64,000 bases of DNA from Acidobacteriota bacterium. GTDB lineage: Bacteria > Acidobacteriota > UBA6911 > RPQK01 > JADFOI01. Of this stretch, positions 1 through 64,000 are shown piece by piece; within the stretch, counting starts at the first letter, position 1, and each line of letters starts with the position of its first letter. A program made the translations under genes and the position numbers. The stretch lies in assembly GCA_963663035.1 (NCBI GenBank), contig OY760074.1:64001-128000 (forward strand). Reading direction: 5' to 3'. The notes beneath the pieces are model-generated. The model did no database searches. It was given only the letters and a program-made list of their open reading frames with translations, and was not told the DNA's origin.

Positions 1-81
1 TCGCAGACCGGCGGTGCGACCCAGATCAACGTCGTCCTCAACTGGTTTGAAGAACTCAAACGCCTGGTGCCTACCCCATGA
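1..81 (+). CDS. 3' end of Ser/Thr kinase-TolB-like propeller gene (runs in from left edge) or a remnant of one
   Basis: Translates ..[19 protein letters not shown], the same C-terminal motif as the kinase ending at 35183. Confidence 0.75.
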
Positions 82-221
82 TCGGCCAAACCATCTCCCA
101 CTACAAAATCATCGAGAAGATCGGCCAGGGCGGCATGGGAACCGTCTACCGTGCCGAGGACACCAACCTGAGCCGTGAAGTGGCATCAACGTTGGACACC
201 CACTTCGAAAAACCTGGCTGA
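78..221 (+). pseudogene. Kinase N-terminal stub
   Basis: [36 protein letters not shown], then unrelated sequence and a stop; ATGA overlap with upstream stop. Confidence 0.85.
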
Positions 222-859
222 CGATTAAACAACCGATGCAAGGAGTAGATAGTAATGTGTGAACTAATCCGAAAGCAATTGGAGGGCAAGTTCAATCATA
301 AGTTTGATGAAGAACTTAAGAAAGCCAACTTATCTCTTGTAGATATCCATACAGTACTAAATAGGATGGGCGCGCCAGAGGCAAATGGGACTGTAGGAAC
401 TACCGTGGGTCAAAGGTTGAGATGGCTGATTGCCCAAGAAGTCAATCGTGAGGAGGAGCGCCTTCAGCTTGGATGTAATTTTCACAAAGTCCCTCGATGG
501 AAGTTTCTTGCAGCAATCCCTTTAATTTACATTCCGATACTGGTAGGAGCCCTACCAGTGATTGTGAGTGCTCTTTTGGTTCGAACCCATCTTACGATGG
601 TGGGCGGCCGTGCGCTGAAGTCCTATTGGAATGATTTTGTTCCAAGCTGGGTGAGTCACCGTTACACTCGTGATACCCAAATTGTCACCGATAAGTTATT
701 GGACAAGTACGGGGCTCTAACTTACATAACCAAATCTAAGCTGTTTTGGATTTTCAATTGTAAGCTTTACTGCCCATTGGCGGTTGCGCTCCTTGCCTAC
801 ACGCTCTACCTGGTAAAAATTGTGGAGTAGTGGTGGTGTCCTTTCGGCCACGATAAAAA

Positions 860-2239
860 GAGGTTCCGTCAATAAGTGTGTAAATAGACATCAGGCGGCT
901 TTCTCCTGGGTGACTGGGTTGACTGGAACTCCATTGACATATTGGGCTCCTTGGTAGACATCCTTCATCAAGTGGGGAGCCTTCAAACGGCGAAATCTCT
1001 TCTCAGCGACCAGCAGCATCTTCCAGATGACAGCCCGTGCGTTGGCCACTTTCTTGAACCTTCGAGCAGCATCGGTTCGCAGTCGCAGAGCAGAGAAGGG
1101 AGACTCCACTGGGTTGGTAGTCCGCAGATGTTGCCACTGCTGTTTGGGATAGTTGTAAAACGTCACCATCCGCTCCCAGTCCTGGTCGATCAGATCAGCC
1201 GCTGCCTCCAGGCCTCTCTTGCTACACCAATGTTGGAATCGTCCTTTGACTCGCTCGGCTTCCTGCCGTGTTTCTGCATAAGGGATCTGCCGCAACATCA
1301 ACAAGGCCGCTTTGTGCCGACTCTTGGGGATCTTGGCCAGCAAGTTGACGATGCGATGATTCCAGCATCTCTGCTCGTCGGCTTCTGGGAACACGTTGCG
1401 CAACGCTCCCCAGATCCCCAGATGCCCGTCAGCGATCACCAGACGGGGTGGGTTCATCCCCCGCTCTTTGAGATCCCGCAGCACTTCGGACCAGCTCTGG
1501 GTCGATTCTCGATAACCACTACTGACGGACACCACCACTTTAGTGCCATCACTTAAAGCGGCGATCACTACCAGAATCACGGCCTTCTCCTTCTCCAGCC
1601 CTGCTTTGATGTACACGCCGTCCGCCCACAAATACACGACTTCCAGATCATCCAGCCGACGGCTCTGCCAGGCCTCCATTTCTCCCTGCCACTTCTGTTT
1701 CAACCGGGCTACGGTGCTGGGGGACAGCGGCGCTTCTTCCCCTAAAAGCCCTCTCAAGGCCAGATCGAAATCCCCCTCGGCCAGACCATGTAAATAGAGT
1801 TCTGGAATCAAGTCTCGTACCTCTCGCGTTCGCTTGGCAAACAGCGGCAAGACCCGGCTCTCAAAACGCTCTTCCAGATCCCGCACTCGGGGACGCCGCA
1901 GCTTGATCGTTCCGCAACTCATCGTCAGTCGCCGCTCCTTGCCGTAGCCGTTGCGATAGCCACCGGAGGCGTCCACTTCTCGGCGACGCTCATTCTTTCT
2001 TCGTCCCAGCAGCTGTGTCACTTCATCCTCCAGCAGTTCCTGTACGTAAAACTGGATCTGCTCTCGCACCCACTCTTCCAGCTGTTCAAAGCAGACTCTT
2101 GACTCCACACTGTGATCAATGTTCTTCTTGCTCATGGCGGTGTGACTCCTTCCTTTCGGGCTCTTCCGCCCGGGTTTTTATTTTCACCCGGAAGGATAAT
2201 CACCGCCTGTGCTATTTACACACCTTTTGAGGGTAGCTC
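860..2239 (-). mobile_element. IS256-family insertion sequence
   Basis: Imperfect terminal IRs (gaggttccgtcaataagtgtgtaaatag / gagctaccctcaaaaggtgtgtaaatag); 9-bp TSD CGATAAAAA at 851-859 and 2240-2248. Confidence 0.95.
891..2135 (-). CDS. IS256-family (mutator-type) transposase
   Basis: 414 aa; YRNGY, WADGVY, DG..G, QRCWNH, TTNPVES motifs. Confidence 0.95.
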   Translation of the reverse strand: MSKKNIDHSVESRVCFEQLEEWVREQIQFYVQELLEDEVTQLLGRRKNERRREVDASGGYRNGYGKERRLTMSCGTIKLRRPRVRDLEERFESRVLPLFAKRTREVRDLIPELYLHGLAEGDFDLALRGLLGEEAPLSPSTVARLKQKWQGEMEAWQSRRLDDLEVVYLWADGVYIKAGLEKEKAVILVVIAALSDGTKVVVSVSSGYRESTQSWSEVLRDLKERGMNPPRLVIADGHLGIWGALRNVFPEADEQRCWNHRIVNLLAKIPKSRHKAALLMLRQIPYAETRQEAERVKGRFQHWCSKRGLEAAADLIDQDWERMVTFYNYPKQQWQHLRTTNPVESPFSALRLRTDAARRFKKVANARAVIWKMLLVAEKRFRRLKAPHLMKDVYQGAQYVNGVPVNPVTQEKAA

Positions 2240-2446
2240 CGATAAAAAACATACATATGCTAATATACCAATCGATAAGTCATTCTGGCACGCTGTCGGC
2301 GACGAGGTTCTACTACATCCAGATGACAGAGAAAATCCAAGCTGGAACCAAGACGCACTTTGAACTGCCCGGTGGCCCCGGCCGCACACGGGTGCAACGT
2401 CACCGCGACGACCCTCGCTTCCACGACCTGCTTCCATGAGAAGGCC

Positions 2447-2760
2447 CTTTCTTGTCAAGACCGACTTGGCGGTCAAAAGTCCGGGACCGGGTGATTAAGC
2501 CAGCTGATGGGAGTTCGCTTAATCGATCCAGTGATGCTGATTTTGTTTGCCTTGCTTCCATCCGCACTCTTTTTCAGCCCTTGATTTGGACTGGGTGCAT
2601 GTAAGGGTTCGTCAAACTGGGCGCTGCAATCTGCGGCTCGTTCTCTTCCGAAGGAAGGAACAGCAGGTCGTTCGCAGTCACCCGAACTGGGCATTTGGAT
2701 CATTGAGGTTAACTCCATGGGCGGGTCACGTTCACCGGAATCCCTTCTGGGTTCAATCTC
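2447..2760 (-). ncRNA. Putative bridge/seek RNA region of IS1111 copy 1 (boundaries approximate)
   Basis: Non-coding 3' end containing cgacctgctg - hairpin - ccgcag, matching both halves of the insertion target. Confidence 0.75.
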
Positions 2761-3849
2761 TTAGGCAGCCCCTTCCAGGTACTCTTGATTGTTGTACAGC
2801 GGTTCATAGGTCTCTCCTGTGACCCACAGATGGTGCAGCAGGACCGAGAGTTTACGAGCCACCGCCACCACGGCTCGCTTCTTGGCGCTTTTTCCTCCTC
2901 TGGAAGCAATCCTCTCCCCATAGCGTCGCAAGTCACAATCCGAGCCAAAAGGTCCCAGGATGTACTGGGAACTACCGACCAGTAGTTTGCGAACGAATCG
3001 GTCGCCGGCTTTGGTAATCCTCAACTGAGGATCCCGATTCCCGGATTGGTCTTGTCTGGGAGTGAGCCCCAGATACGCTCCCACCTGGCGACTTCTTCCA
3101 AACCGATGGGCATCCTCGAGGGTCAAAACAAAGGCCAGAGCTGTGATCGGTCCTACTCCTCGAACTTGCTGAAGGTTCTCGGTGTCCGGATACTTCTGCT
3201 GGCACAGTTGCTGAATCTGCCGATCGTATTGGCGGATCTGTGCGGTGAGCTGTTGGATCATCTCCAGCAGGGGCTCCAAAGCCATCTTCAGGCAACCCGG
3301 AATGTGGAGTTTGACCCGATGGGGAAAAGCCTCTGTGGAACAACTGGGCAGACGCTCCCCGAAGGCTTTCACAGATCCTCGGATAGGATTGACCAGCCGG
3401 GTTCGGGCTCTCACCAGCTCATCTCTAGCTTTAACCACCGCCAGGTCCGCTTGAGCGGCTTCGCCCCGATGCTGAATCGGATACAACAGCTCGGGATCCA
3501 CTCTTCCTAAACGTCCCAGAAGCTCTCCATCCTTGCGGTCCGATTTCTTTCGGTTCTGGCTGATGAGTCGAACCTGTCGGGGATTGGCCACGATTTCTTC
3601 GTGTCCTTGCTCCTTGGCTATCGCTTGCACCCACCGAGAGTGGGTTCCCGTTTCCAACACCACCCGCATTTTTGGCTGAGACTTGAAGAACCTTTCCATG
3701 GCTCGTCGTTGAGTCTTCACCCTACCTTCTTCCACTTTCTGTCCTGACTTGTCGATGATGCAGTAGTAGGAAAATTTGTCTCCCAGGTCCAAACCCATCG
3801 TCAGTTCCGGAATCTGTGTGATCTCTTTGATAGAATCTTTCATGGCCAA
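2761..3849 (-). CDS. IS110-family DEDD recombinase/transposase
   Basis: GLDLG, LETG, KSDRKDG, GVGPITA, YLGLTPRQDQSG motifs. Confidence 0.95.
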   Translation of the reverse strand: MAMKDSIKEITQIPELTMGLDLGDKFSYYCIIDKSGQKVEEGRVKTQRRAMERFFKSQPKMRVVLETGTHSRWVQAIAKEQGHEEIVANPRQVRLISQNRKKSDRKDGELLGRLGRVDPELLYPIQHRGEAAQADLAVVKARDELVRARTRLVNPIRGSVKAFGERLPSCSTEAFPHRVKLHIPGCLKMALEPLLEMIQQLTAQIRQYDRQIQQLCQQKYPDTENLQQVRGVGPITALAFVLTLEDAHRFGRSRQVGAYLGLTPRQDQSGNRDPQLRITKAGDRFVRKLLVGSSQYILGPFGSDCDLRRYGERIASRGGKSAKKRAVVAVARKLSVLLHHLWVTGETYEPLYNNQEYLEGAA

Positions 3850-4045
3850 GCTCCTTTGCTAAAGAGTTAATATTTTGCAGCCCAAGCTTTGGGACTGCGT
3901 TCCTCTTACTGCAGCTCATTTTAGAGACTGCCTCTGAGGAGTTTGGCCTTCTCATCCTTATCTGCTGCGGATGAACCTGGCGCCGTAGATGAAGCTGATC
4001 TTTCAGGTCGCGTTTCAACTGATAGAATAGTGCCTGAGGTGTTTA

Positions 4046-4327
4046 ATGAGAGCCATTTGGAAGAACATCACTCTTGCTGAAAGTGATCGAACTATTGTCG
4101 TGGAAAGGAATCATTACTTTCCCCCTGATTCCATCAACAGAACCTATTTTGAAGACAGCGAAACTTACACCCACTGTTCCTGGAAGGGGCAGGCCAGTTA
4201 CTACGACATCGTGGTGGGCGGAGAACGGAATGGAGATGCCGCCTGGTACTATTCAGAACCCAAGGAAAAGGCGGCACAAATCAAGAATCATATCGCCTTT
4301 TGGAAGGGCGTTGAAGTCGTTCCATAA
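4046..4327 (+). CDS. DUF427 family protein
   Basis: NHYFPPDSI, THCSWKGQASYY, DAAWYY motifs; GAGG RBS. Confidence 0.9.
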   Translation: MRAIWKNITLAESDRTIVVERNHYFPPDSINRTYFEDSETYTHCSWKGQASYYDIVVGGERNGDAAWYYSEPKEKAAQIKNHIAFWKGVEVVP

Positions 4328-4338
4328 GGCCTCTTTTT

Positions 4339-4391
4339 GCGACGACCCTCGCTTCACTGACCTGCTGCTGCGGATGAATTTGGAGCCTTGA
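4339..4391 (+). repeat. Repeat A (DDPRFTDLLLRMNLEP*), intact and unoccupied by IS
   Basis: gcgacgaccctcgcttcactgacctgctgctgcggatgaatttggagccttga. Confidence 0.9.
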
Positions 4392-4746: not shown

Positions 4747-5472
4747 TTATTCCGGCATGGGTAGAAGGGGTTCTCGATCGGAGGCCAGTTGCATGTTGAC
4801 AGCTTTCAACGTCAGGGACGTTCTCACGTAGTTTCCGATCAGGAATGTCAGAGTGACCAGTTGGTCCTCACCAAATTCTTTGACAGCCTGGCTGTAGGTC
4901 TCCGAGCTGAGTTCCGTTTCCCTCAACAGCTCGCGTGTGTAGCGGATCAGCACAGTGTCCTGTTCCTTGAGACCCTCGGGTTTTTTATTGTATTTCACCA
5001 CCTCAATGACCTCGGGCTCCAACCCCACTTCCAGTGCTGTGGGTTCATGGGAGGTCCATTGATATTGACCGTTCATCTCCCGGACGGTGAGCAAGATTGC
5101 CAATTCCCGGGTTCGAGCATCCAGGCCGCTCTCGAATCGCAAATATTCATTGGCCAGGGCTAGATGCCGGCCAGCCCTAGTACTGTAAAGATAGAAGCCT
5201 CTGGGACCCATCACACCTTCAGTTCGGGAGGCTGGGTTGACAAAGAAATCGTAAAGGTCCTGGCCATCCGCATCCAGATCCTCCCGGTGCTTCAGTGGAA
5301 GACGCGACCTGGACTCCGGATCGATGTCAGGTGGCATGCCTTGCTGGGAGGGAATCCTGAAGGTTGGGACCGGGCTTGAGGAAGCCTCTTCGGAGCCGGG
5401 GCTTGGACTGCATCCAAGGAAAATGGCACCGCTTAAAAGAACAATCAGCACTGAAAAGACTTTTTGCTTCAT
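4747..5472 (-). CDS. Carboxymuconolactone decarboxylase/AhpD-like lipoprotein
   Basis: Lipobox FLGC; LDARTRELAIL..YQWTSHE motif; start taken at MKQKVF. Confidence 0.8.
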   Translation of the reverse strand: MKQKVFSVLIVLLSGAIFLGCSPSPGSEEASSSPVPTFRIPSQQGMPPDIDPESRSRLPLKHREDLDADGQDLYDFFVNPASRTEGVMGPRGFYLYSTRAGRHLALANEYLRFESGLDARTRELAILLTVREMNGQYQWTSHEPTALEVGLEPEVIEVVKYNKKPEGLKEQDTVLIRYTRELLRETELSSETYSQAVKEFGEDQLVTLTFLIGNYVRTSLTLKAVNMQLASDREPLLPMPE

Positions 5473-5642
5473 TTCTGAGATCCTCCCCCCACTTTCTCCG
5501 CTTTTCCGATGTCCTTTCGCCACTGGCCCAAGCGTGAAAGAACACGGCAGCAGATGTTTGCCACTGTCTCTTTGGACTTTTTCAAGCTCCAGAAGAGCCT
5601 GACGCAAGTCTAACAAAGTTGACTTCCTTCGTTCTTCTCTTC

Positions 5643-5696
5643 CGCGACGACCCTCGCTTCCAGGACCTGATGCGGCGCATGAACTTAGAGCCGTGA
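5643..5696 (+). repeat. Repeat A (RDDPRFQDLMRRMNLEP*)
   Basis: Direct sequence match to the other copies. Confidence 0.9.
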
Positions 5697-5829
5697 TTGA
5701 TTCAACTGTAACCATTTTGTAACCGCGACAACCCAAAACCACCCCATTCCACACCACTCCAGCCAAGATAGACAACACGTAACTACTTGGTAAATCTAGT
5801 GGTTTCAGTTGGTTAGGATTTACCCGTTG

Positions 5830-5887
5830 AGGACTTAAAATCCTGTGAGGGTTTCCCTCGTGAGGGTTCGAGTCCCTCCCCGGGCAC
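5830..5887 (+). repeat. 3' half of tRNA-Leu(TAA), att-like duplication, copy 1
   Basis: Anticodon loop ggacTTAAAAtcc, long variable arm, T-arm gagggTTCGAGTccctc, acceptor strand cccgggca; no 5' half or D-arm. Confidence 0.88.
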
Positions 5888-5949
5888 GCTTCTGACGCGG
5901 GTTTCAGCCAAATTGAGTCTCCCCGACTCACCCTCCAAACCCCCAAATT

Positions 5950-6013
5950 GTGCCTGAAGTGTGCCCGCGCCAAACTCACTCCAACTCACTCCAGCCAAAA
6001 TAGAGGGGAATTT
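5950..6013 (+). repeat. Repeat E: gtgcctgaagtgtgcccg + (ccaactcact)n arm-like repeat
   Basis: Recurs at 9922-9985, 10104-10123, 29279-29317, 46676-46697, 49741-49770 and 63628-63646. Confidence 0.8.
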
Positions 6014-6167: not shown

Positions 6168-7160
6168 CTATGGGTTCGGATTGGGTGCCTGCATGGGACA
6201 CCCGCGGGACGCCGATGTAGGCTCCTCCTCGACATACTGGTCTTCGGTGGATCTGGCGCGCCCCATGCCGCAGCAGGGCATCATCATGTTTCCGCCCATC
6301 ATGCGGCAACCGTTCATCGGTCCCATGGGCGACGGGGCTACCGGATCGACTTCGAATGCCATGACATAGTCCGCCAGGGCCCAGATCTCGTCCTTTTTCA
6401 GAGAGTAAAGAAAGGAAGGCATGGGTGTCCCGTCGTTGCCAGTCGCGATCGTCAGTGCTACATTCTGGCGGGTCCTGCCTCGTTTGAACTCTCCTGCCTG
6501 GAGAAAATTACGAGGTCGGATGGGAAAGCCAAAGGAGTCCTCCATGTTCTCCGCGGACTGCCCGTCGCCGTATCCGTCGGGGCCGTGGCACGAGACACAT
6601 CCCGCCCGGACATAGAGTTCGCGACCACGTTCTGTCTGGACGTTCACGGCTGGCGTTTCGGCTCCCAGTTCAACAGGTGGGCCCGGGGGTTCCTCACTGA
6701 AGTAGTCGGAAATTGTCTTCAGGTCGTGCACCAGGGACCAGCGCTGGCTCTTCGAAAGGGTGTAGCGCCCAGTCGGCATGTCGCTACCCTGTACGCCGAC
6801 CGAAATGGTTCGGAAGAGGTCCGAATCTCGGGGCAAGCTCCCGCTCTGGGTGGTCTTGAACCGGAAGATGCCTCGGGTGAAGTCCCTCGGCTTGGGATAC
6901 AGGTGCCGTGACATCATGCCTCGGCCATCACCGTTCGGCCCGTGGCACCCTGAACAGTTCCTCCTGAAGATCTCCTTGCCCCGCGTAAGGTCATGGGAAC
7001 CCAAGGGGACCGGCTCGGGAGGGAGGAATTCGGTCCAGGAAAAAGGTCGGTCAGAGTCGGCCGGCCCACTCCGATGCCCGACCCCCTAGGCATGCGTGTT
7101 GTCGGCTGAAAACAGGAAGAGGAGTAGACACCACATGGCGAGGCGTTTCGCCAGCAGCAC
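6168..7160 (-). pseudogene. Di-haem cytochrome c with in-frame TAG just after the signal peptide
   Basis: CSGCH and CVSCH; PKPRDFTRGIFRF; GTG start at 7160 with GGAG RBS; TAG at 7086-7088 is in frame. Confidence 0.75.
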
Positions 7161-7627: not shown

Positions 7628-7793
7628 GGGTCCTCCATGAAACCTATTATGAGGTACAAAGATACATCTAGAAAGAAAACCCGCAGCGAGCTGAAAGCCT
7701 TGCCGATTCCACTTGGCCCGCATGATGCCGACCCTAGAGTGGGAATAAAAGGGGATACAACAAAGGGGCCGGAGCGCCTATAATGCGTGGGCT

Positions 7794-8954
7794 ATGTGTG
7801 CCTCTTTGTTACCACCTCCTATTATTGTCGCTGACGAAGACAGCCTCGGTCGGCTCGTCCGCGCTCTCGCCTCTTATCCGGTCGTAGCCATCGATACTGA
7901 ATCCAACAGCCTCCACGCCTATCGCGAGTGCGTGTGCCTCCTGCAGTTCTCCACCCCCGCCGCTGACTACATCGTCGATCCGATCAGGCTGCCTGGTCTG
8001 AATCCGCTCGCGCCCTTCTTCGCCAATCCGAGCCAGCAGAAGGTCTTCCACGCTGCCGAGTACGACCTCATCTGCCTCAGGCGCGACTACCACTTCGAGT
8101 TTGCGAATATCTTCGACACGATGAGCGCCGCGCGCACACTCGGCTGGCCGCAGGTCGGCCTCGCCGCCATTCTCGACTCCCACTTTGGCGTGAAGCTGAA
8201 CAAAAAGTATCAGCGTGCCGATTGGAAACGCCGTCCCCTGAAGCCGGAACAGTTGGAGTACGCACGGCTCGATACGCACTATCTCCTGGCATTGCGCGAC
8301 CGACAGCTCCAGGAGTTGAGTGAGTCCGGCTACTGGCCGGAGGCGCACGAGGACTTTGCACGCCTGGAGCGACAGCGTGTCGACTCCGACCACGCGGGCT
8401 CAGACCCGACGGCATTCTGGCTCGTCAAGGGCGCGCGCGACCTCACGCCGGCACAGGCCGCTGTCCTCCAATCCCTCTTCACGTACCGCGAAGAACAGGC
8501 CGCGCGCATGGACCGGCCCCCCTTTAAAGTCATGGGAGCGGCGACGCTGATGGAGCTCGTCCTCCGCGCCCCGACCCACACCGAAGAACTGCAGCGTCTG
8601 TCCGTGATGACGCCGAAGCAAATCCACCGCCACGCGCACGGCGTATTGCACGCTATCCAAGAGGGACTCCACGCCCCTCCCCAGCGGGCGCCTCAGGCCG
8701 ATCGCGAGTCTGACGACGTGTGCGATCGGTACGACCGCCTGCACACATGGCGCAAGAACAGGGCGATGGCGCGCGGCGTTGAGTCGGATGTCATCCTTCC
8801 GCGCAAGGCGCTCTGGGATCTTGCTCGCCGCCCCCCGCTCACCCACGGCGAAATGGCGCACATCACAGACTTCGGCCCCTGGCGGCGGGAAACGTACGGG
8901 GAAGAGATTCTGGCGCTGCTGTCTCGCGCCACGCCCTCGCCGGGTCGCATCTGA
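7794..8954 (+). CDS. rnd: Ribonuclease D (3'-5' exonuclease + HRDC domains)
   Basis: AIDTES, VFHAAEYD, FDT, DWKRRPL, YARLDTHYL. Confidence 0.9.
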   Translation: MCASLLPPPIIVADEDSLGRLVRALASYPVVAIDTESNSLHAYRECVCLLQFSTPAADYIVDPIRLPGLNPLAPFFANPSQQKVFHAAEYDLICLRRDYHFEFANIFDTMSAARTLGWPQVGLAAILDSHFGVKLNKKYQRADWKRRPLKPEQLEYARLDTHYLLALRDRQLQELSESGYWPEAHEDFARLERQRVDSDHAGSDPTAFWLVKGARDLTPAQAAVLQSLFTYREEQAARMDRPPFKVMGAATLMELVLRAPTHTEELQRLSVMTPKQIHRHAHGVLHAIQEGLHAPPQRAPQADRESDDVCDRYDRLHTWRKNRAMARGVESDVILPRKALWDLARRPPLTHGEMAHITDFGPWRRETYGEEILALLSRATPSPGRI

Positions 8955-55387: not shown

Positions 55388-55467
55388 AGGGGGAGTTTCG
55401 TGCTCGGCAAGACCATCTCGCATTACAAGGTTCTTGAGAAAATTGGCCAGAAGGGTATCGGGAGGTG
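55388..55467 (+). pseudogene. Kinase RBS + N-terminal stub
   Basis: gggggagtttcgtgctcggcaagaccatc as at 30821; VLGKTISHYKVLEKIGQKG. Confidence 0.85.
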
Positions 55468-55470
55468 AAG

Positions 55471-57195: not shown

Positions 57196-57204
57196 GCCCG
57201 GACA

Positions 57205-59385
57205 ATGAAGCGAAGCCCCAGTGGCGGCGGATGGCCAGCCGTGCGATATGCCTGGCAGAAGAGCCAGCAAGTCGGTGGCCTTTTGCCAATGTGGAAGGCC
57301 TTGCGCACCAAGAATGCCTGCAAGACCTGTGCGCTGGGCATGGGTGGGCAAAAAGGGGGGATGGTCAACGAGATCGGTGGCTTTCCCGAAGTCTGCAAGA
57401 AATCCCTGCAGGCCATGGCCGCAGACATGCAGGGTGCAATCAAACCGGAGTTCTGGAGTACCTACTCCATTGAGGAACTCAGGAATCTCTCACCTCGCCA
57501 ACTCGAGTCGTGTGGTCGGCTGGTTCAGCCGGTGCTCTATAGGCGCGGCCAGAAATATTACCGCCCCATAGAGTGGCCCCAGGCCATGGAACTGATCGTC
57601 GCCAAACTCAAGAGTCTCCCCGCCCGGCAAACCTTTTGGTACTTCAGCGGACGCAGTTCCAATGAGGCGGGGTTTCTGCTGCAGCTCTTCGCCCGACTGT
57701 ATGGGACCAACAATGTGAACAACTGCAGCTACTACTGCCACCAGGCCAGCGGGGTGGGACTGACCCGTTCTTTGGGCAGCGGTACCGCCACCATTTTGTT
57801 GGAGGACCTGGAATGCGCCGATCTGGTTTTTGTCATCGGCGGCAATCCGGCCAGCAACCATCCGCGCCTGATGACCAGCCTGATGCGTGTGCGACGGCGC
57901 GGTGGCGAGGTGATCGTGGTCAACCCGGTGGTGGAAGCCGGGCTGGTGGAGTTTCGGGTACCCAGCAACCTGCGCAGCCTGTTGTTTGGGACCCAGATCG
58001 CCACCCTCTATATTCAACCCCATGTGGGGGGAGACCTGGCGCTGCTCAGCGGGATCGCCAAGCGGATTGATGAGATGGGGGCACAGGACGAAGCGTTTCT
58101 CCGCACCCATTGTGAGAATTATGACGAGTGGATCGGGCACCTGCGGAAAATCCCCTGGAGCGAAATCTGCACCAAGTCGGGCGTACGACAATCCGAGATC
58201 GACCAGATCGCCGAGAAGTACGCAGCGGCCAGGAAGGTTGTTTTCAGTTGGACTATGGGGATTACCCATCATGCCCATGGCGTCCAGAATGTGCAGGCGA
58301 TTGCCAATCTGGCCTTGATGCGAGCCATGGTGGGACGCCCTCACGCCGGTTTGTTGCCTATTCGCGGCCATTCCAATGTACAGGGCATTGGCAGTGTGGG
58401 AGTGACGCCAAAGCTCAAGCGTCAGATCTTTGAACGTTTGCAGAACCACTTTGACGTGGAACTGCCGGTTGATGAGGGTCTGGACACACTGGGATGTATC
58501 GAGGCTTCCTATGCTGGCCGGTTGAAAATGGGATTCTGTCTGGGGGGGAACTTGTACGGCTCCAACCCGGATGCCCGCTATACTGGCGAGGCCCTCTCTC
58601 GGCTCGACATGCAGGTTTACCTGAGCACCACACTTAACACCGGACATGCTCACGGACTGGCTGAAGAGACACTGATTCTTCCCGTACGGGCACGTGACGA
58701 GGAAGCGCAGCCGACAACCCAGGAATCGATGTTTAACTTTGTTCGGCTGAGCGACGGTGGTCCGCCACGCCACCTCGGTCCGCGCGGAGAAGTTGAAATC
58801 ATTGCTGAGATTGCAGAGGGCGTACTGAGCAGCGGCGGACCCATCGACTGGCAGTCCATGGGCAACACCGGCCGTATCCGTGAAGCCATTGCCAAAGTGA
58901 TTCCCGGCTTTGAAAAGATGGGCAGGATCGACAAGACCAAAGAGGAGTTCCAGATCGAGGGCCGCACCTTCCACACCCCTCGCTTTCCCACCGATTCCGG
59001 CCGCGCGGTATTGAGCCCCCATGACCTGCCTGAACTGCAAGGCCGTGCTGGAGAGCTGCGGCTCATGACCGTACGGAGTGAGGGACAGTTCAACACGGTG
59101 GTCTACGAAGAGGAAGACCTGTACCGTGGTCAGGACCGCCGCGATGTCATCCTGGTCAATCCTCAAGACATCAAACGGTTGGGTCTCACCGAGAATGAAC
59201 GCGTGACGGTCCACAGCGAGATCGGATCGATGTCCGGCATTCTGGTGCGGCCCTTTCCTCAGATCAAGGCTGGCAATGCGCTGATGTACTACCCGGAGGC
59301 CAATCAGTTGGTGGCGCGCCACACCGACAAGTTGTCGCGGACGCCCGCCTTCAAGGGTGGTGTGGTCACCCTTGACAGAGATTAG
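57205..59385 (+). CDS. FdhF/YdeP-family molybdopterin oxidoreductase
   Basis: SGRSSNEA, NNCSYYCHQAS, RGHSNVQG, TVRSEGQFNT. Confidence 0.92.
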   Translation: MKRSPSGGGWPAVRYAWQKSQQVGGLLPMWKALRTKNACKTCALGMGGQKGGMVNEIGGFPEVCKKSLQAMAADMQGAIKPEFWSTYSIEELRNLSPRQLESCGRLVQPVLYRRGQKYYRPIEWPQAMELIVAKLKSLPARQTFWYFSGRSSNEAGFLLQLFARLYGTNNVNNCSYYCHQASGVGLTRSLGSGTATILLEDLECADLVFVIGGNPASNHPRLMTSLMRVRRRGGEVIVVNPVVEAGLVEFRVPSNLRSLLFGTQIATLYIQPHVGGDLALLSGIAKRIDEMGAQDEAFLRTHCENYDEWIGHLRKIPWSEICTKSGVRQSEIDQIAEKYAAARKVVFSWTMGITHHAHGVQNVQAIANLALMRAMVGRPHAGLLPIRGHSNVQGIGSVGVTPKLKRQIFERLQNHFDVELPVDEGLDTLGCIEASYAGRLKMGFCLGGNLYGSNPDARYTGEALSRLDMQVYLSTTLNTGHAHGLAEETLILPVRARDEEAQPTTQESMFNFVRLSDGGPPRHLGPRGEVEIIAEIAEGVLSSGGPIDWQSMGNTGRIREAIAKVIPGFEKMGRIDKTKEEFQIEGRTFHTPRFPTDSGRAVLSPHDLPELQGRAGELRLMTVRSEGQFNTVVYEEEDLYRGQDRRDVILVNPQDIKRLGLTENERVTVHSEIGSMSGILVRPFPQIKAGNALMYYPEANQLVARHTDKLSRTPAFKGGVVTLDRD

Positions 59386-59398
59386 AGAGCAATTTTGA

Positions 59399-59428
59399 TT
59401 GCTTTTACGCCACCTCAAGATTTAGCAT
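59399..59428 (+). promoter_or_regulatory. Promoter D copy
   Basis: TTGCTT-18-TAGCAT. Confidence 0.65.
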
Positions 59429-59462
59429 TGGGACCACTTGGTCAGGAAGTGGACGAGAGAAT

Positions 59463-60896
59463 ATGCACAAGGCAAGACAGATATCCTGGATTCTCTTGGG
59501 AGCGGTAACAGTTGCCCCATACCTTATACCAGCCTTCGCCCAGACAACCAACGATCCTTTTTCCACACCGATCGTCGCGGAGGAAGGCGTCATCAAGGTC
59601 GATTTCGTCGAGTTTGCCTCCATCCCCGACATAGACGGCGAGGCGGCGCGCGTGATGCTGCTGGTCGATGAGCCGGGCACGCGCCGCATGTTTGTCAATG
59701 ACATGCGCGGTCCGGTGTACAGCGTCAGCTACGACGGCCAGAGTGTTAAGCCGTATGTCGATGTCAACGCCGACAACTGGGGCGTCAGAGTCCAGTCGTC
59801 CGGCCGGGAGCGGGGCATGCAGAGCTTTGCCTTCCATCCACAGTTCGCTCAGGCCGGCACCCCGGGGTTCGGCAAGTTCTACATCTGGACCGACACCAGC
59901 AACACGGATCCGACGCCCGACTTCGTCCCTGGCGGAGGCGACAACACGCACGACACGGTCCTGTTGGAATGGACCGCCCGCACTCCCGGCGCCGCAACCT
60001 ATGATGGAGGCGCTCCGCGCGAAGTGCTCCGCTTCGAGCAACCCTTCCGCAACCACAACGGCGGTCAGATCGGGTTCAACCCGCTGGCTTCGCCCGCTGA
60101 TGCGGAGTTCGGCCTGCTCTACATCGGCGTCGCCGACGGTGGCAGCGGCGGTGATCCGCTCAACCTGGCGCAGAACCTCAACGCGGGTTTCGGGAAGATC
60201 ATGCGTATCGACCCGCTCGGGTCCAACAGCGCCAACGGCGAGTACGGGATCCCAGCTGACAATCCGTTCGCCAACGACGGCGACGACACCACTCTGGCTG
60301 AGATCTACGCCTATGGCACTCGTAATCCCCAGCACTTTGCCTGGGATTCCGCCAACGGCAATATGTTCTTCACGGAGATCGGCCAGAGCATCGTCGAGGA
60401 GGTCAGCCTGGTCACCGCGGGCGCCAACTTTGGCTGGAACGACTGGGAGGGCAGCTTCGAATTCATCAGCCGTTCCGAAGTGCGTCTCACCAACCAGCGC
60501 GGTGATCCCAGTGTCACCTATCCCCTGGCCGAGTACGACCACCGCGACCCGCTCCTGCAGGGAAGGTCCGCGGCCACCGGTGTTCACGTGTACCGCGGAA
60601 GCGCCATCCCACAGCTGGCCAACCGCGTGTTGTGGGGCGACTTGCCCAGCGGAGAGATCTTTTATTTCGACGCCGACAATTTGCCCAGTGGTGGACAGGC
60701 GGCCGTCCGCCGCGTTTTGCTCCTCCGCGATGGCGTAGGAAAGACGCTGCTCCAGCTCATCCAGGAGAAGAATCGCCAACAGGGCAAGGAAGCGGCTGCG
60801 CGTGTGGACCTGCGCATCGGTGCGGGACCGGATGGACAAGTGTTCATTATGAATAAGCACGACGGCACCATCCGTCTGCTGGTTCCCGGGAAGTAG
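59463..60896 (+). CDS. Glucose/sorbosone (PQQ-dependent) dehydrogenase-like protein
   Basis: NHNGGQIGF, DGGSGGDP, YGTRNP, GANFGW. Confidence 0.88.
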   Translation: MHKARQISWILLGAVTVAPYLIPAFAQTTNDPFSTPIVAEEGVIKVDFVEFASIPDIDGEAARVMLLVDEPGTRRMFVNDMRGPVYSVSYDGQSVKPYVDVNADNWGVRVQSSGRERGMQSFAFHPQFAQAGTPGFGKFYIWTDTSNTDPTPDFVPGGGDNTHDTVLLEWTARTPGAATYDGGAPREVLRFEQPFRNHNGGQIGFNPLASPADAEFGLLYIGVADGGSGGDPLNLAQNLNAGFGKIMRIDPLGSNSANGEYGIPADNPFANDGDDTTLAEIYAYGTRNPQHFAWDSANGNMFFTEIGQSIVEEVSLVTAGANFGWNDWEGSFEFISRSEVRLTNQRGDPSVTYPLAEYDHRDPLLQGRSAATGVHVYRGSAIPQLANRVLWGDLPSGEIFYFDADNLPSGGQAAVRRVLLLRDGVGKTLLQLIQEKNRQQGKEAAARVDLRIGAGPDGQVFIMNKHDGTIRLLVPGK

Positions 60897-60917: not shown

Positions 60918-62351
60918 TCAGATCTCTTTCGCCGAGATGTCCAGCAGGCTCCGAGCGAACTGAGCGAAGTTGTAGACATCCGCAAAATTGCTGGCCAGCC
61001 CCAGGGAAACCCGGACGGCGCCGGCGCTCTGCCCGTCCTTCTGCTCGAGAACGCTCAGAAACTGATCCAGCGTCATACGCTCGTCGTCCTTGAAGGCTTC
61101 GGCCATCTGTTCCTTGCTGAGGCCATGGGCGATCTCGCTCGCTCCCGGGTTGCAGAAGCAGCCGGTTCGCAGGCAGATTCTGGACTGGTTGGCACGAATC
61201 TCGACACGCCGGTGGTCGACGAGTTTTCCGTCGGGGTCGTAGAAGTTCAAGGCCAGATTGCCGCCTCGCATGTGCATCTCCGTGGGACCGTAAATCCGAA
61301 CCAGCGGTACTCCAGTGGCATGGCGGAGGACCCTCAGTTCACCCAGCAGCCAGCTCATCAAGCAGCTTACGCGCCTGTGTATGGTTTCCATTCCGATGGA
61401 GGCCATGTGTCTCAGGCCGAACTCCACCGCAGGCAGGGAGAGATAATTGATTGTGCCCTCTTCGAATGCCGCCTCGCCCTCTGCCAGGTGATAATCGTCC
61501 GCCTGCACGGAGGCAATCGTGATGGTGCCCCCGGCGAACCACGGTCTGGAGAGCTTGGCCAGCGCCGACTTGCGAGCGAGCAGGCACCCCACGCCGGTGG
61601 GGTAGCCGAAGAGCTTGTAAAATGACATCACCACGAAATCAGGATGCCAGCGGCCCAGGTCGAGGCCATTAGTGGGGGCAAAGGCAGCGCAGTCCAGCAG
61701 CACATCCCAGCCCCTGGACTGGGCCTCCGCGATCCATTCCAGCGAGAATTGAACGCCCGATAAGTTGGACTGTGCCGGGTAGGCAAAGAGGTTCCTGCCA
61801 CCGGACATGTCCAGCTGTTTTCGCAAGCTGCGCTCGTCGACACGCAACTCAGGCGGAATGACCGGCACGTAGGCGACGGCAGCACCCTTTGAGCGGGCAA
61901 ACTCCCTGATGCCATTCACCGAGTTATGGTTATCAAAGGTCAACAGGTAGCGGTCGCCCGGACCGAACGGATAGGACTCACCGACCAGCTTGATGGCGGC
62001 CGTAGCGTTGGAGGTAAATATGGCGACGTACTCATCCGGCGAGGCATTGAAGAATTCGAGCACGTAGGCGCGTACCCTATCGACCCACAGCGTGGCGGCC
62101 TCCGAAGCGGAGTTGATCGAATGGGGGTTTCCGAAAACGTCGCCCCTCAGCAACTCCATGTGCTGGCGTATCTGTGAGTCGGAGTACAGCCCAGCCCCCG
62201 TGTAGTCGAGGTAGACGACGCCTTTTAGATCGAGGCGCGCGTACTCAGCTGCACGCATTTCATCCAGCGCTTGAGTGGACTCGTAGTCGGGATAGGCTTT
62301 TTTGAAGCGGGAGTATGCGGCAGTCAGACCGGTGGCGAGCGAATGGGCCAT
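60918..62351 (-). CDS. PLP class-V enzyme, molybdenum-cofactor-sulfurase-like
   Basis: YLDYTGAGLY, NHNSVNGIRE, SFYKLFGYPTG, RTGCFCNPG. Confidence 0.88.
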   Translation of the reverse strand: MAHSLATGLTAAYSRFKKAYPDYESTQALDEMRAAEYARLDLKGVVYLDYTGAGLYSDSQIRQHMELLRGDVFGNPHSINSASEAATLWVDRVRAYVLEFFNASPDEYVAIFTSNATAAIKLVGESYPFGPGDRYLLTFDNHNSVNGIREFARSKGAAVAYVPVIPPELRVDERSLRKQLDMSGGRNLFAYPAQSNLSGVQFSLEWIAEAQSRGWDVLLDCAAFAPTNGLDLGRWHPDFVVMSFYKLFGYPTGVGCLLARKSALAKLSRPWFAGGTITIASVQADDYHLAEGEAAFEEGTINYLSLPAVEFGLRHMASIGMETIHRRVSCLMSWLLGELRVLRHATGVPLVRIYGPTEMHMRGGNLALNFYDPDGKLVDHRRVEIRANQSRICLRTGCFCNPGASEIAHGLSKEQMAEAFKDDERMTLDQFLSVLEQKDGQSAGAVRVSLGLASNFADVYNFAQFARSLLDISAKEI

Positions 62352-62541
62352 AACCGAGTCTACCAACTCTCGATGGAGAAAATGAACAATAAATGGATTC
62401 TTTCCGCGACGATCGTCGACTCTTTACGAAACTTTACATACTTTTCCCGCCCTTTGTACATCCTTAGAGTATTAGTGTGAAGGTCAATTGAATTTCTTAA
62501 CGCCTACACCAAAACGGGCTAACAAAGGGAGGGTTACTAAT

Positions 62542-63279
62542 TTGAAAAAGACAATCATGACGACGACGGCAGTGTGGCTGGGAATGGTCTGTGTCGGAGT
62601 TTCAGCCCCACAGTATCAAGGATCTCCAGAGATCAGCGAACCTCTTTCAACAGAGGACCAGCTTCGTTCCACCCTGGACGATGTGGTCATCCCGAGAAAG
62701 ACGGAGCTTTTCATCACTTTACAGCAAACCCTGAGTACAAAAGCTGCTGGAGGAGGACACAAATTCTTCGGGAAGCTGGTCGTGCCGGTGACAGCAAACG
62801 ACAGGATCATTATCCCAGTCCAGAGCTATGTCATTGGACATGTCCTAGCCTCCAGCGAACCCGGATATCTCCAGGGTGGTGCTGAACTGCTCTTGGCATT
62901 CGACAGCATTATTTTGCCGGATGGTACGACCCGGCAGATCGAGGCAGTCGTCCAATCGGCGGAAGGGGTGAGTACCAATCAGACCGATGAACAGGGGACA
63001 CTCCAAGCTCCTGGGAACCAGGGAGAAGAAACCGTGTCCGGTGCGACCAAAGGGGCCGTACTGGGAGGAGTCATTGGGGTTGCCAGTGGTAGAAATCTGA
63101 AGGGATTGGGAGTTGGTGCCGCAATCGGATCAGCGGCAGGCGCACTGATCGGGTTGTTCAAAAAGGGGGATGACGTAGAGCTGAGGAAGGGAACCACTGT
63201 GACCATCCAACTCAAGAGCGAAATCCGTTTTGTCAGCTTACCTCCCAGGAATGCATCCAGGGTTCCCATGTCACGATAG
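62542..63279 (+). CDS. Secreted VirB10-like/glycine-zipper protein
   Basis: Signal peptide, LAFDSIILPDG, GAxxGxxxG zipper, DVELRKGT. Confidence 0.7.
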   Translation: MKKTIMTTTAVWLGMVCVGVSAPQYQGSPEISEPLSTEDQLRSTLDDVVIPRKTELFITLQQTLSTKAAGGGHKFFGKLVVPVTANDRIIIPVQSYVIGHVLASSEPGYLQGGAELLLAFDSIILPDGTTRQIEAVVQSAEGVSTNQTDEQGTLQAPGNQGEETVSGATKGAVLGGVIGVASGRNLKGLGVGAAIGSAAGALIGLFKKGDDVELRKGTTVTIQLKSEIRFVSLPPRNASRVPMSR

Positions 63280-63331
63280 GCTGCGGCGGCGGATGCGGAC
63301 AACCAGGATATAATGCTGATCAGTATAAACA

Positions 63332-63619
63332 TTGTCCGCCAACATGCTGTTCAGAAAAGACTACATCAAGAAATTGACCGCCGAGCTGCCAATGAGCAAG
63401 GGCGAACTGCTCGGGAAAATCCTGGAATTGCACCCGGAGAAGAGCTTTAAAGATCTCTTTGTGGTTGCCGACGAAGAGGATCGCTACGTGGCCATAGCAA
63501 CTTACCAAGTCGATGACACCTACCGGGGACATCCGCCATCCCTCGCTTACGCAATCTACAAACTCGATTCAAGGGTCGAAGCGATCGATCACGCAGGCTA
63601 CGGCCTGGGAATCAAGTGA
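63332..63619 (+). CDS. Hypothetical protein
   Basis: Protein-like 95-aa ORF; start uncertain. Confidence 0.45.
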
Positions 63620-63627
63620 GGTTCGCA

Positions 63628-63693
63628 GACTCACTCCAGACCAGATAAGCGGCAGAATTGATTGCCTTTTTACCCCCTACAGACTTAGCATTG
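63628..63693 (+). promoter_or_regulatory. Repeat E remnant + promoter D (TTGCCT-18-TAGCAT)
   Basis: Hexamers at 63662 and 63686. Confidence 0.65.
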
Positions 63694-63725
63694 AGGAGAA
63701 TGACGCCAGAGATGAGCGGGACTCT

Positions 63726-64000
63726 ATGATCGGGAAAACTGTTTCGCATTACAAGATTCTGGAGAAACTGGGTGGTGGAGGAATGGGTGTGGTTTACAGA
63801 GCCGAGGACACCCGCCTGGGCCGCAATGTCGCCCTGAAATTCCTGCCTGAGGAGTTTGCCCAGAACCGTCAGGCCCTGGAGCGGTTCCAGAGAGAAGCCA
63901 GAGCGGCCTCGGCACTCAACCATCCCAACATCTGCGTCATTCATGACATCGGGGAGCATGAAAGTCAGCCCTTCATTGTGATGGAGTTTCTGGAAGGGAA
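63726..64000 (+). CDS. Ser/Thr protein kinase, runs off right edge
   Basis: [53 protein letters not shown]. Confidence 0.9.

Follow-up and report, generated by a model that had tools for sequence, protein, structure and literature searches.

The 64,000-nt stretch of DNA analysed here (the window), from the genome of an Acidobacteriota bacterium (G000), contains unrelated genes separated by repeated pieces of one composite junction, which raises the question of how such an array arises. The names of homologues point to a Vicinamibacterales-like member of that phylum. A preliminary description took it for an unfamiliar, integron-like system in which genes are captured at the conserved termini of a kinase family. 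The reading that we favour, with slightly more confidence than doubt, is that the window makes up the proximal part of a zone of high plasticity, composed of integrase-less islands and anchored at the genome's only canonical tRNA-Leu(TAA) gene. Such a zone resembles known pile-ups of genomic islands, not a new gene-capture machine.

Parts, order and polarity of the junctions

The whole closed genome (one contig) was scanned for junction parts with HMMs and patterns, and 137 parts were found, namely kinase 5' ends (57), kinase end A (26), kinase end B (19), promoter D (18), arm E (9) and tRNA-Leu anticodon stem-loops (8). Both strands are used genome-wide (92 parts on +, 45 on -), but the parts are co-oriented within each cluster. 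The window, 1.8% of the genome, contains 30 of the 137 parts, and all 30 are on the + strand, as first described. Wherever parts co-occur, the described order of kinase end, arm or tRNA piece, arm E, promoter D and kinase start is always kept. Approximately 14 junctions were counted in the window, and a tRNA piece is retained in three of them.

The kinase parts derive from two types of Ser/Thr kinase genes, kinase-propeller genes ending in end B and kinase-TPR genes ending in end A, whose paralogues share 33-73% amino-acid identity. In tandem arrays of these genes, the stop of one overlaps the start of the next, and promoter D and its variants precede many intact kinases elsewhere in the genome.

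The seven promoter D copies and the three tRNA-Leu pieces (5830, 10043 and 46629) reported earlier were all recovered, together with most of the kinase ends and starts: end B at 11-81, 18381-18442, 35112-35183 and 48139-48198, solid end A copies at 4336, 5639, 16775 and 46606, kinase starts at 72-184, 18827-18919, 28106-28279, 30821, 55389-55459 and 63719, and HPNI-type internal kinase pieces at 28011-28105 and 51529-51592. The kinase starts at 35175 (E 0.023) and 48197 (about 30 nt) are weak, and the end A copies at 22573 (22572..22604, 33 nt, E 0.82) and 44111 (12 nt) are marginal. The two end A copies read at 2404 and 3962 proved to be a single motif (2402..3988) split by an IS110-type element (body 2433-3961, transposase on -), and the end A read at 23828/25374 is the insertion site of a second copy of that element (23845..25373, -), whose flanks retain only the motif core of about 18 nt. 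Where seven or eight arm E copies were claimed, three are strong (5944, 9918 and 29263); shorter versions start at 10106 and 46674, each behind a tRNA piece, and one more is found within 5740-5775.

Repeats of 0.06-1.6 kb are abundant in the region, and the short contigs end at each of them and give no confirmation of the joins; both points speak for an assembly artefact, with kinase, IS or junction repeats wrongly joined. Such an artefact is nevertheless scarcely credible: the genome is one closed contig, matching 4-bp target duplications flank the IS copies, the halves of split genes fit together, and the unique parts are identical in contigs of four runs from three studies. Moreover, the same architecture is present on single contigs of independent assemblies of relatives (G005:C1, G003:C63, G006:C212 and G001:C167). 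The polarised array with variable cargo between copies of one conserved composite junction is real; the same co-oriented junction was found in genomes of the same genus, of the same family and of one other family, with different cargo. In G005:C1:1-160000, 42 of the 44 parts are on the + strand, and the two - parts belong to one separate kinase gene.

tRNA-Leu(TAA) pieces, arm repeats and integrases

The tRNA pieces span the anticodon stem to the 3' end of tRNA-Leu(TAA). The first piece in the window (5830..5891, +) is identical to the gene; it is preceded by an end A remnant with the last ~50 codons of a kinase-TPR gene (5550..5696, +) and by arm U (5697..5829, +), which contains an arm E-like repeat, and is followed by a spacer and a long arm E (5892..5998, +), as behind the intact tRNA gene. 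The 5'-side arm (9792..10042, +) of the second piece (10043..10105, +) consists of post-end-A sequence and an arm E (9918-9969); behind the piece are a short arm E and promoter D (10106..10210, +) and then a small + strand ORF (10202-10462). The third piece (within 46606..46787, +) has a 15-nt internal deletion and is joined to the end A piece before it at a CAGGAC microhomology; behind it come a short arm E, promoter D and 20 codons left of a kinase start. One arm E copy (29263..29317, +) is without a tRNA piece.

Compared pairwise, the five long tRNA-piece copies have a 58-nt core with 100% identity in 10 of 10 pairs, and the 115 nt after it have a mean identity of 87% (minimum 81%). Arm E repeats were found on both sides of the internal cores and only on the downstream side at the intact tRNA gene. 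The 5' boundary of the pieces falls into three classes, at what we take to be the recombination point of anticodon-loop-class integrases. G000 has eight tRNA-piece copies, six same-genus drafts 0-6, other genera of the family 1-3, and other families 0-3, mostly one. These pieces look like classical att-type repeats, and a description of the array as lacking att sites is not supported.

The canonical tRNA-Leu(TAA) gene is single-copy in the genome (3548899-3548984) and matches its G005 counterpart at every one of its 86 nt. A copy of the insertion sequence IS-C is inserted in the -10 of the promoter D just behind it. The left junction of this copy and the right junction of the IS-C that abuts kinase 58681 have a common TTAG, and joining these two junctions rebuilds one promoter D. 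The canonical gene was once directly upstream of the array, and the two were parted by IS insertion and later rearrangement; the old order is retained in G005, where tRNA-Leu is followed by kinases and these by the module array, which extends from 54.8 kb to about 112 kb.

The array in the window contains no integrase, as previously stated, and none was found in the G005 array. In G029, a genome of a different family, a 327-aa tyrosine integrase is present beside the intact tRNA-Leu(TAA), on the opposite strand; 12.5 kb further, arm U and a tRNA piece are followed by arm E, promoter D and a kinase start, and arm U together with the core shares 83% identity with window positions 5705-5887. The same arm and tRNA piece as in the window end an integrase-bearing island there. 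In G000 an orthologue of the G029 integrase is absent, and the best match (39% identity) is beside tRNA-Arg. G000 has an intact integrase (1255783-1256796) between two tRNA pieces; only fragments of this integrase were detected in relatives. In G026 a 38-aa integrase remnant adjoins a tRNA piece.

These observations bear on a rival reading in which site-specific recombination never took place. According to it, a founding tandem duplication that had one of its ends within the tRNA produced a unit consisting of a tRNA piece followed by arm E, promoter D, a kinase and end A, which was amplified with the kinase family by unequal crossing-over; decay, IS activity and ordinary horizontal transfer then added genes, and gene conversion from the live tRNA kept the pieces identical. 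The overlapping stops and starts of the tandem kinases, promoter D ahead of intact kinases elsewhere, the arrays without integrase, the many junctions that lack a tRNA piece and the plentiful deletion derivatives are all in accordance with it, as a constant 5' boundary of the tRNA piece would be, this being expected from one founding duplication. However, the boundary has three classes, not one, and lies at the presumed integrase recombination point; the core has arm repeats to its left and right; cores are 100% and arms 81-96% alike, against the 33-73% amino-acid identity of the kinase paralogues; and the same upstream arm and core close the integrase-bearing island of the other family. We regard this duplication history as rather unlikely.

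Kinase remnants, insertion sequences and cargo

The kinase fragments, all on the + strand, are the remains of a tandem kinase array that has been shortened by microhomology deletions and IS copies. At the left edge, end B (1..81; end B HMM) closes a kinase-propeller gene that begins upstream of the window and is intact (blastx, 100% to ORF 61244-64081 of the genome), and its stop is overlapped by the start of the next tandem kinase, a 5' remnant of ~100 codons (72..374). Promoter D precedes a full kinase-propeller gene (30748..35183) with an IS-C inside (32001-33639); the next tandem start (35175..35785) runs after 8 codons into an unrelated ORF, which is cut by another IS-C (35786-37424). The right edge (63643..64000) has promoter D and the first part of an intact kinase-TPR gene, whose end A is beyond the window. 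Other remnants are kinase-propeller 3' parts with end B (~220 codons, frameshifted, 17796..18442; ~120 codons, followed by ~10 codons of the next start, 47831..48231), 5' fragments (32 codons, 18827..18919; ~24 codons behind a variant kinase promoter, 55389..55459), an internal piece followed by a 77-codon 5' fragment (28011..28301) and an HPNI-type internal piece (51529..51592). End A also stands alone, as the last ~17 codons of a kinase-TPR gene (4336..4391) or as 42 nt followed by post-end-A sequence (16775..16817). The genome is IS-rich (102 copies of four families), and the window further contains an IS256/Mutator-type IS (854..2243, -; Pfam Transposase_mut; 21 genome copies >1 kb), an IS-C with a DDE_Tnp_1_4 transposase and a CTAG target duplication (12788..14426, -; 30 genome copies) and an IS3-type IS (52070..53354, +; Pfam rve; 47 genome copies).

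The cargo, assigned mostly with Pfam, is diverse. A small ORF (4046..4327, +; no assignment) has its stop 14 nt ahead of the next end A piece, and is followed by a CMD-like protein (4749..5592, -; weak match; 91% nucleotide match in G009), cytochrome c (6168..7004, -) and RNase D (7762..8981, +). The RNase D gene is 92-93% identical at the nucleotide level to other families, was not found in six same-genus genomes, and was probably acquired from another family. The block at 10734..16573 (+; a 413-aa ORF, a znuA-like gene split by an IS, and an ABC-3 permease with HEAT repeats) is syntenic in G003 and G006. It is followed by a DUF2911 protein (16896..17753, -), a weak SnoaL-like small ORF below the Pfam cut-off (18457..18825, +), the sharp-ended DUF4159 unit (19286..20277, -) and an amidohydrolase in two overlapping frames owing to a frameshift (20288..22580, +), whose right end is the same in four same-genus genomes. 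Further along are a SprT-like/DUF2786/DUF7168 protein with an Nramp transporter (25397..27965, +), a Vgb-lyase-like beta-propeller (29330..30556, -) that is on another contig in G005, and an amidase (-), alpha/beta hydrolase (-), DUF5916/CBM9 protein (+) and Smr (+) at 37438..43660. The remaining cargo comprises a TPR protein (+) and a tannase/feruloyl esterase (-) at 44188..46506, a 331-aa ORF (46761..47756, +; weak matches only) that is behind promoter D in G005 as well, an amidohydrolase (-) followed by promoter D (49764-49859) driving a tannase (+) at 48286..51511, an ankyrin-repeat and a Dabb-domain protein (53318..55253, +), an amidohydrolase and a molybdopterin oxidoreductase (55465..59385, +), promoter D driving a glucose/sorbosone dehydrogenase gene (59381..60896, +), a pairing also found in G005, and a class-V aminotransferase (-) and a glycine-zipper protein (+) at 60918..63279. 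G005 61.6-80.1 kb is the counterpart of G000 61.8-130 kb, and the same cargo genes recur elsewhere with other junction parts around them or on separate contigs.

A further reading takes up the landing pads of the preliminary description; in it, kinase termini are the substrates of homology-driven or otherwise unfamiliar recombination, genes are swapped into kinase shells, and promoter D expresses what is captured. Cargo does lie repeatedly with a kinase start on one side and a kinase end on the other; in G006:C212 the alpha/beta hydrolase stands alone between a kinase start and end A, and its context in G000 is different. A + strand ORF follows all seven promoter D copies in the window, five of these ORFs being non-kinase, and several stand-alone end A pieces start within about 10 nt of each other, right after the stop of an unrelated gene. 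Eight of 25 short 5' fragments end inside one 12-nt stretch, at GxGG codons; however, this break is in a G-rich stretch, where microhomology deletion would be favoured, and the other 17 ends are scattered, with 5' fragments of 44-239 nt and 3' fragments of ~30-650 nt. Start-end fusions without cargo are plain internal deletions, and there are also end A-tRNA fusions and direct end A-promoter fusions, such as the 12-nt end A remnant joined to promoter D at 44111..44193 (+). Junctions differ between genomes at short microhomologies or gene ends: the DUF4159 unit lies between junction parts in G003, G006, G001 and G014, and four different parts adjoin it in as many genomes, the joints showing microhomology. 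A large share of the cargo lies on the opposite strand, where promoter D cannot drive its expression. The detection of remnants is also biased toward termini, because recognising a short remnant requires nucleotide-level conservation of the family at that point. The one demonstrated use of a kinase end as a landing pad is that of the IS110-type element, which targets the end A motif; as a general mechanism of capture, this reading is improbable.

Proposed formation of a tRNA-anchored plasticity zone

Under the favoured reading of tRNA-anchored islands, the start state is one that the sequences show: the tRNA gene, then its downstream flank (spacer, arm E and promoter D), then a tandem array of the two kinase types. 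Elements with a tyrosine integrase may have integrated at the tRNA core from the anticodon stem to the 3' end, each event leaving one co-oriented copy of the core. Excision between any two cores would yield a circle with the joint kinase end, arm, core, arm E, promoter and kinase start, and re-integration, or homologous recombination between repeats of 0.3-0.7 kb, could spread and reshuffle the units. Since the integrase is gone from the array, the units are now integrase-less islands of the 'cis-mobilizable element' kind. Kinase bodies and junctions were trimmed by microhomology deletions and IS insertions, and what is still recognisable is mostly the conserved termini. Promoter D is now directly before several non-kinase genes, and the IS110-type element has a core within end A as its target.

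Several points count against this reading. Integrases are absent from the arrays of the window and of G005, G000 is without an orthologue of the G029 enzyme, and the intact G000 enzyme has only fragments as counterparts in relatives. Junctions without a tRNA piece have to be explained by deletion or as ordinary tandem kinase junctions. Simple integration would duplicate the tRNA core alone; that several cores are followed by further copies of arm E, promoter D and the kinase start requires an extra assumption, either excision between non-adjacent cores or duplication. Gene conversion, instead of site-specific recombination, could be the source of core identity. No excision product or circular form was seen in the short contigs of the runs, which break at every repeat.

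The zone has a described analogue, although the preliminary description recognised none. In Dehalococcoides, tandem islands, some without an integration module, lie behind ssrA (PMC3146451).

Kinase-derived parts and the anatomy of the junctions

The genome that holds the window (G000) is closed, 3.59 Mb in one contig, and the window spans bases 64001-128000 of that contig. Matches to Pkinase over the curated cut-off number 28 in this genome and fall into two architectures: kinase-propeller proteins of ~890-914 aa with the C-terminus NWFEELK..VP (end B), and kinase-TPR proteins of ~790-800 aa with the C-terminus DDPRFxDLLRRMNLEP (end A). Two genes of the window, one at 30832-35183 and another starting at 63726, encode Hanks-type Ser/Thr kinases recognised by Pkinase. 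The kinase genes often stand in tandem, so closely that the stop codon of a gene overlaps the start codon of its downstream neighbour, which explains the order in which end B is followed by a kinase start. A blastx map of the window revealed one full kinase (30832-35183), split by IS-C, an insertion sequence with a DDE_Tnp_1_4 transposase, together with longer 3' kinase remnants at 5550-5696, 17796-18442 and 47831-48196 and short 5' remnants.

The junction parts were counted with HMMs that were built from intact copies and run over the whole genome. They are clustered and polarised: 137 parts were detected genome-wide, 92 on the + strand and 45 on the - strand, and the 30 in the window are all on +. 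End A was matched 33 times (seven times in the window); nine of these matches close an open frame of at least 500 aa, and the other 24 stand alone. Among the 46 kinase-start matches, 21 continue as a gene, and the remaining 25 are fragments 44-239 nt long. With corrections, these scans and the blastx map bear out the list of repeated parts in the preliminary description. Two reduced kinase genes were also observed elsewhere in the genome. At genome 1279554-1279662, within a tandem kinase array, an in-frame ORF of 37 codons consists of the first 16 and last 21 codons of a kinase-propeller gene; at genome 11789-13323, a kinase-TPR gene lacks exactly the kinase domain through an in-frame deletion at the GxGG codons, and the remaining 570-aa frame keeps end A.

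Alignments and relatives together give the order of the full junction: end A, ~45 nt of conserved post-stop sequence, an arm with arm E, ~57 nt, a piece of tRNA-Leu(TAA), a short or long arm E, promoter D and a kinase start. Arm E, which consists of direct repeats of a 10-nt unit, occurs in this order both before and after the tRNA piece and is therefore found on both sides of internal pieces. Promoter D was predicted by eye as a sigma-70-like TTGCTT-N18-TAGCAT, followed ~35 nt further on by a strong ribosome-binding site. All seven copies in the window precede an ORF on the + strand (two kinases and five other genes), and promoter D may drive the expression of cargo. The junction was also considered as a MITE-like mobile unit with fixed inverted ends, but this reading was dropped because comparison by eye of the commonest left end (the start of end A) and right end (the GxGG codons) revealed no consistent terminal inverted repeat or target duplication.

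An assembly artefact is extremely improbable as the source of this mosaic. Parts of the window that are unique were recovered identically in contigs of four sequencing runs from three studies, and the junction parts were 30-50 times deeper than the unique parts, which reflects many copies and relatives. These data are short Logan contigs, a kind that cannot show excision. Some of them do contain joints such as 5996>10147 and 5686>9792; each side of these joints is short (20-46 nt) and agrees with the canonical junction as it occurs at other sites, and the joints are evidence of neither excision nor misassembly. Runs with small shares of the sequence are labelled sponge, sediment or marine metagenomes, labels from which no habitat is drawn.

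tRNA-Leu(TAA) pieces, their displaced gene and candidate integrases

ARAGORN detected no tRNA gene in the window and made four tRNA-Leu(taa) calls in the whole genome, of which only the one at genome 3548899-3548984 has a canonical 5' half; this gene equals that of G005, a relative of the same genus, over 86 nt. The anticodon stem-loop is present in eight copies in the genome, three of them in the window, and all eight continue to the 3' end of the tRNA. They begin at the anticodon stem, where three classes of 5' limit differ slightly from one another. The core of the pieces is 100% identical to the gene, and the pieces are co-oriented direct repeats of its 3' part, as expected of att-like sites. 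In the five long copies, 58 nt are 100% identical in all ten pairs, and the next 115 nt average 87% identity with a minimum of 81%. Since perfectly conserved cores lie beside diverged arms, the mobility of islands that have no integrase could be tested directly here. G000 has eight pieces and six drafts of the same genus have 0-6; other genera of the family have 1-3, and other families 0-3, mostly one.

The intact tRNA-Leu gene is followed by a spacer, arm E and promoter D, and then by an IS-C copy that interrupts the -10 box. On its left side this IS-C copy (genome 3549138) has TTAG at the junction, as does, on its right side, the IS-C copy next to the kinase at 58681 (genome 58650), and the two flanks, when joined, form a complete promoter D. 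The shared TTAG and the rebuilt promoter indicate that the tRNA gene once stood directly before two kinases that lead into the window, and that recombination between IS-C copies moved it ~110 kb from the array. The three IS-C copies of the window (12788-14426, 32001-33639 and 35786-37424) are all flanked by a duplicated CTAG rather than the TTAG of the tRNA-side copy, from which a palindromic 4-bp target preference of IS-C is deduced. The old order is kept in G005 (10 contigs), in which tRNA-Leu (54824-54909) is followed by kinases and by junction parts to ~112 kb; within the 160 kb analysed, 44 parts were counted, and 42 of them are on +.

No Phage_integrase match lies in the window, the eight matches of the genome all being elsewhere. 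One intact integrase ORF of 338 aa (genome 1255783-1256796), in which Pfam recognises the catalytic domain only, is located between two tRNA pieces that are 12 kb apart. It is a candidate enzyme for the cores, of which relatives carry just fragments or broken or partial copies. In G029, a genome of another family, a 327-aa tyrosine integrase lies on the opposite strand directly beside an intact tRNA-Leu(TAA) gene, and the island closes 12.5 kb further on with arm U, the arm on the upstream side of a tRNA piece, and the tRNA piece itself. This arm U and core are 83% identical to window 5705-5887, and the closing piece is followed by arm E, a group II intron, promoter D and a kinase start of 20 codons. 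The reverse transcriptase of the group II intron is encoded at 10180-11838 of a G029 locus (L023, contig C4), between the tRNA-Leu piece and promoter D. The G029 integrase has no orthologue in G000, where its best match (39%) is beside tRNA-Arg; an integrase remnant of 38 aa lies beside a tRNA piece in G026, and no integrase was found in the G005 array. Integrases may have created the tRNA-piece copies in this genus.

Variable cargo, deletion and insertion sequences

The larger ORFs of the window encode ordinary accessory functions according to Pfam scans, including cytochrome c, RNase D, a znu-type uptake operon, four amidohydrolases, one amidase, two tannases, Nramp, a Vgb-lyase-like propeller, a molybdopterin oxidoreductase, a sugar dehydrogenase, an aminotransferase and a 480-aa ankyrin-repeat protein (53318-54757) that adjoins an IS3-type element. 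Several genes are broken: IS-C interrupts both a znuA-like gene and one kinase, and the coding sequence of one amidohydrolase is spread over two frames. At 35180-35743, the first eight kinase codons are joined in frame to an unrelated ORF, which IS-C interrupts and whose N-terminal part includes a hydrophobic stretch, a possible case of start-codon capture by a cargo gene. Rfam, at gathering thresholds, matched no known RNA family in the window. A short GC-rich, hairpin-forming repeat at 55254-55360, with a 26-nt core and 87 matches on both strands of the genome, looks REP-like or terminator-like.

The content between the repeats is variable, and the genes of the window are spread over many different contigs in same-genus genomes. 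The counterpart of G000 61.8-130 kb is G005 61.6-80.1 kb, so the zone differs in both size and content; G017, an unpublished genome on which none of the conclusions depends, yielded just IS-like and distant tRNA matches. The ends of the DUF4159 gene (19286-20277) are constant within 30 nt, and in four relatives (G003, G006, G001 and G014) the gene is abutted by four different junction parts, at joints with microhomologies of 8-10 nt. In G006 (contig C212), the hydrolase at 39876-40810 is the only gene between a kinase start and an end A. In G001, an extra unit of 415 nt (end A, the post-stop sequence and a small reverse ORF), bounded by an 8-nt repeat, splits segments that are contiguous in G000. 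In the window, end A is fused directly to promoter D at 44111 and, at CAGGAC, to a tRNA piece at 46606. Kinase starts are also fused to kinase ends with no cargo between them, one example being the 37-codon ORF at genome 1279554-1279662. The microhomology joints and both kinds of fusion identify deletion as a main shaping force. Duplication and decay alone are a doubtful explanation for the array.

RNase D (7762-8981) was considered as proof of cassette transfer and rejected in that role, its 90% protein identity across families being partly due to high conservation throughout the order. Transfer of the gene is indicated instead by DNA that is 92-93% identical to genomes of other families, and by the lack of a match in six same-genus genomes of 88-96% completeness. 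The names under which close homologues of this RNase D are recorded point to Acidobacteriota, Vicinamibacterales. In G013 (contig C147), inverted copies of a ~100-nt sequence flank RNase D, and the same sequence in G000 adjoins a transposase ORF that was assigned to IS6 by a motif judged by eye; the context is therefore that of a transposon and not of a tRNA core.

Four IS families are present in the window, and their copies longer than 1 kb in the whole genome number 47 (IS3-type), 30 (IS-C), 21 (IS256/Mutator-type) and four (IS110-type). A host-associated lifestyle is hinted at solely by this IS load and the ankyrin protein. The IS110-type element, which has DEDD_Tnp_IS110 and Transposase_20 domains (Pfam), occupies window 2433-3961 and 23845-25373 and genome 842160-843688 and 1204095-1206895. 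All four copies, and one examined copy in G005, interrupt the end A core at one identical position and are bordered by CT on either side, and two further G005 copies match with their flanks included. None of the four G000 hosts is an intact kinase gene, and the site at 23845 keeps the end A core only. Insertion in the IS110 family is reported to be sequence-specific and guided by a bridge RNA into repeated targets (Durrant et al., 2024, PMC11208160). The element resembles that family in its DEDD and Transposase_20 transposase and in its use of a single position in a single repeated sequence, and insertion into end A fits the sequence-specific mode of the family (PMC11208160). It differs in its target: rather than an intergenic REP, it uses the 3' coding end shared by a family of proteins, together with remnants of that end, and is a clear example in nature of an IS110-type element with such a repeated target.

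The observations as a whole are explained most simply, and on balance probably, by a plasticity zone anchored at tRNA-Leu. Integrative elements would have stacked at the tRNA gene, inside or beside a tandem kinase array. The units between cores may have moved as circles, with a circular joint that would read kinase end, arm, core, arm, promoter and kinase start, and they would have been copied or reshuffled by site-specific or homologous recombination. Integrases would later have been lost from the array, and deletion and IS activity would then have reduced the kinases to recognisable termini. The preliminary description had instead proposed that the kinase termini themselves serve as landing pads for captured genes. 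The termini do recur at the junctions, and end A is a genuine target of the IS110-type element; the proposal is very unlikely all the same. The illusion of a terminus-specific mechanism is stronger because short remnants are recognisable only at conserved termini, and caution is advised in genome scanning, where the stacking of tRNA-anchored islands followed by deletion can yield arrays of conserved gene termini.

The plasticity zone anchored at tRNA-Leu keeps a compact set of exchangeable accessory genes (hydrolases, esterases, transporters and the ankyrin protein) at one tRNA gene, in the reduced, IS-rich genome of an uncultured Acidobacteriota lineage. It is rather unlikely that the array is a still-working platform for gene exchange. 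On that reading, a tyrosine integrase supplied in trans would recombine the perfectly conserved tRNA-Leu cores and move units of 1-5 genes within and between cells of this possibly host-associated lineage, and every junction would supply a promoter D of its own to express the cargo behind it; the candidate integrases would be that at genome 1255783-1256796 or one on incoming elements. If true, such a platform would be an integron-like system made from a tRNA att site and the regulatory ends of kinase genes.

Comparison with described systems

Integrons and CALINs are polarised arrays of small cargo units with a repeated site between them, and such an array is possible without a local integrase. 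Their cassettes are mostly co-oriented and promoterless, each followed by an attC site (an imperfect palindrome), and the intI integrase of an integron lies with attI next to the array. The present array resembles them in its polarised small cargo units, its repeated separating site and its absent local integrase. It is not an integron, to which it had first been likened, because no intI lies beside the array (Phage_integrase search of the window), the cargo occupies either strand and promoters are repeated along the array. The repeat here is visibly derived from a tRNA and has arm repeats; the cargo often has its own promoter, and seven copies of promoter D lie inside the array, in contrast to the single Pc of integrons.

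A second point of comparison is the concept of cis-mobilizable elements (CIMEs) and of the accretion-mobilization of ICEs/IMEs. The units are CIME-like by sequence, and their mobility is putative; apart from a single candidate integrase at a distance of 1.2 Mb, G000 yielded no helper element whose integrase would match. The literature searched yielded no account of this array or of a junction between kinase ends and tRNA-Leu, though such an account may exist.

The closest described case is that of the tandem islands behind ssrA in Dehalococcoides (McMurdie et al., 2011, PMC3146451). The high-plasticity region described there contains co-oriented direct repeats, more than a dozen of them in the ~100 kb downstream of the intact gene, with strain-specific cargo between the repeats and extra conserved sequence around each of them. 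Fifteen islands have no integration module, and the authors interpreted these either as fixed remains or as elements that may be cis-mobilizable and have been moved by accretion (PMC3146451). Co-oriented 3'-end repeats downstream of an intact small RNA gene, extra conserved sequence around the repeats, variable cargo and islands that lack a module are shared by the two systems. The anchor here is tRNA-Leu(TAA), with a core of 58-62 nt from the anticodon stem, whereas 20 bp of ssrA are repeated there; the candidate enzyme is a tyrosine integrase here and a serine enzyme there, and no unit of the present array keeps an integration module. The array described here is further distinguished by units that often hold only 1-5 genes and by junctions that add a promoter and two kinase-gene ends. 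Insertion sequences have also damaged it heavily, and an IS-mediated rearrangement has separated it from its tRNA.
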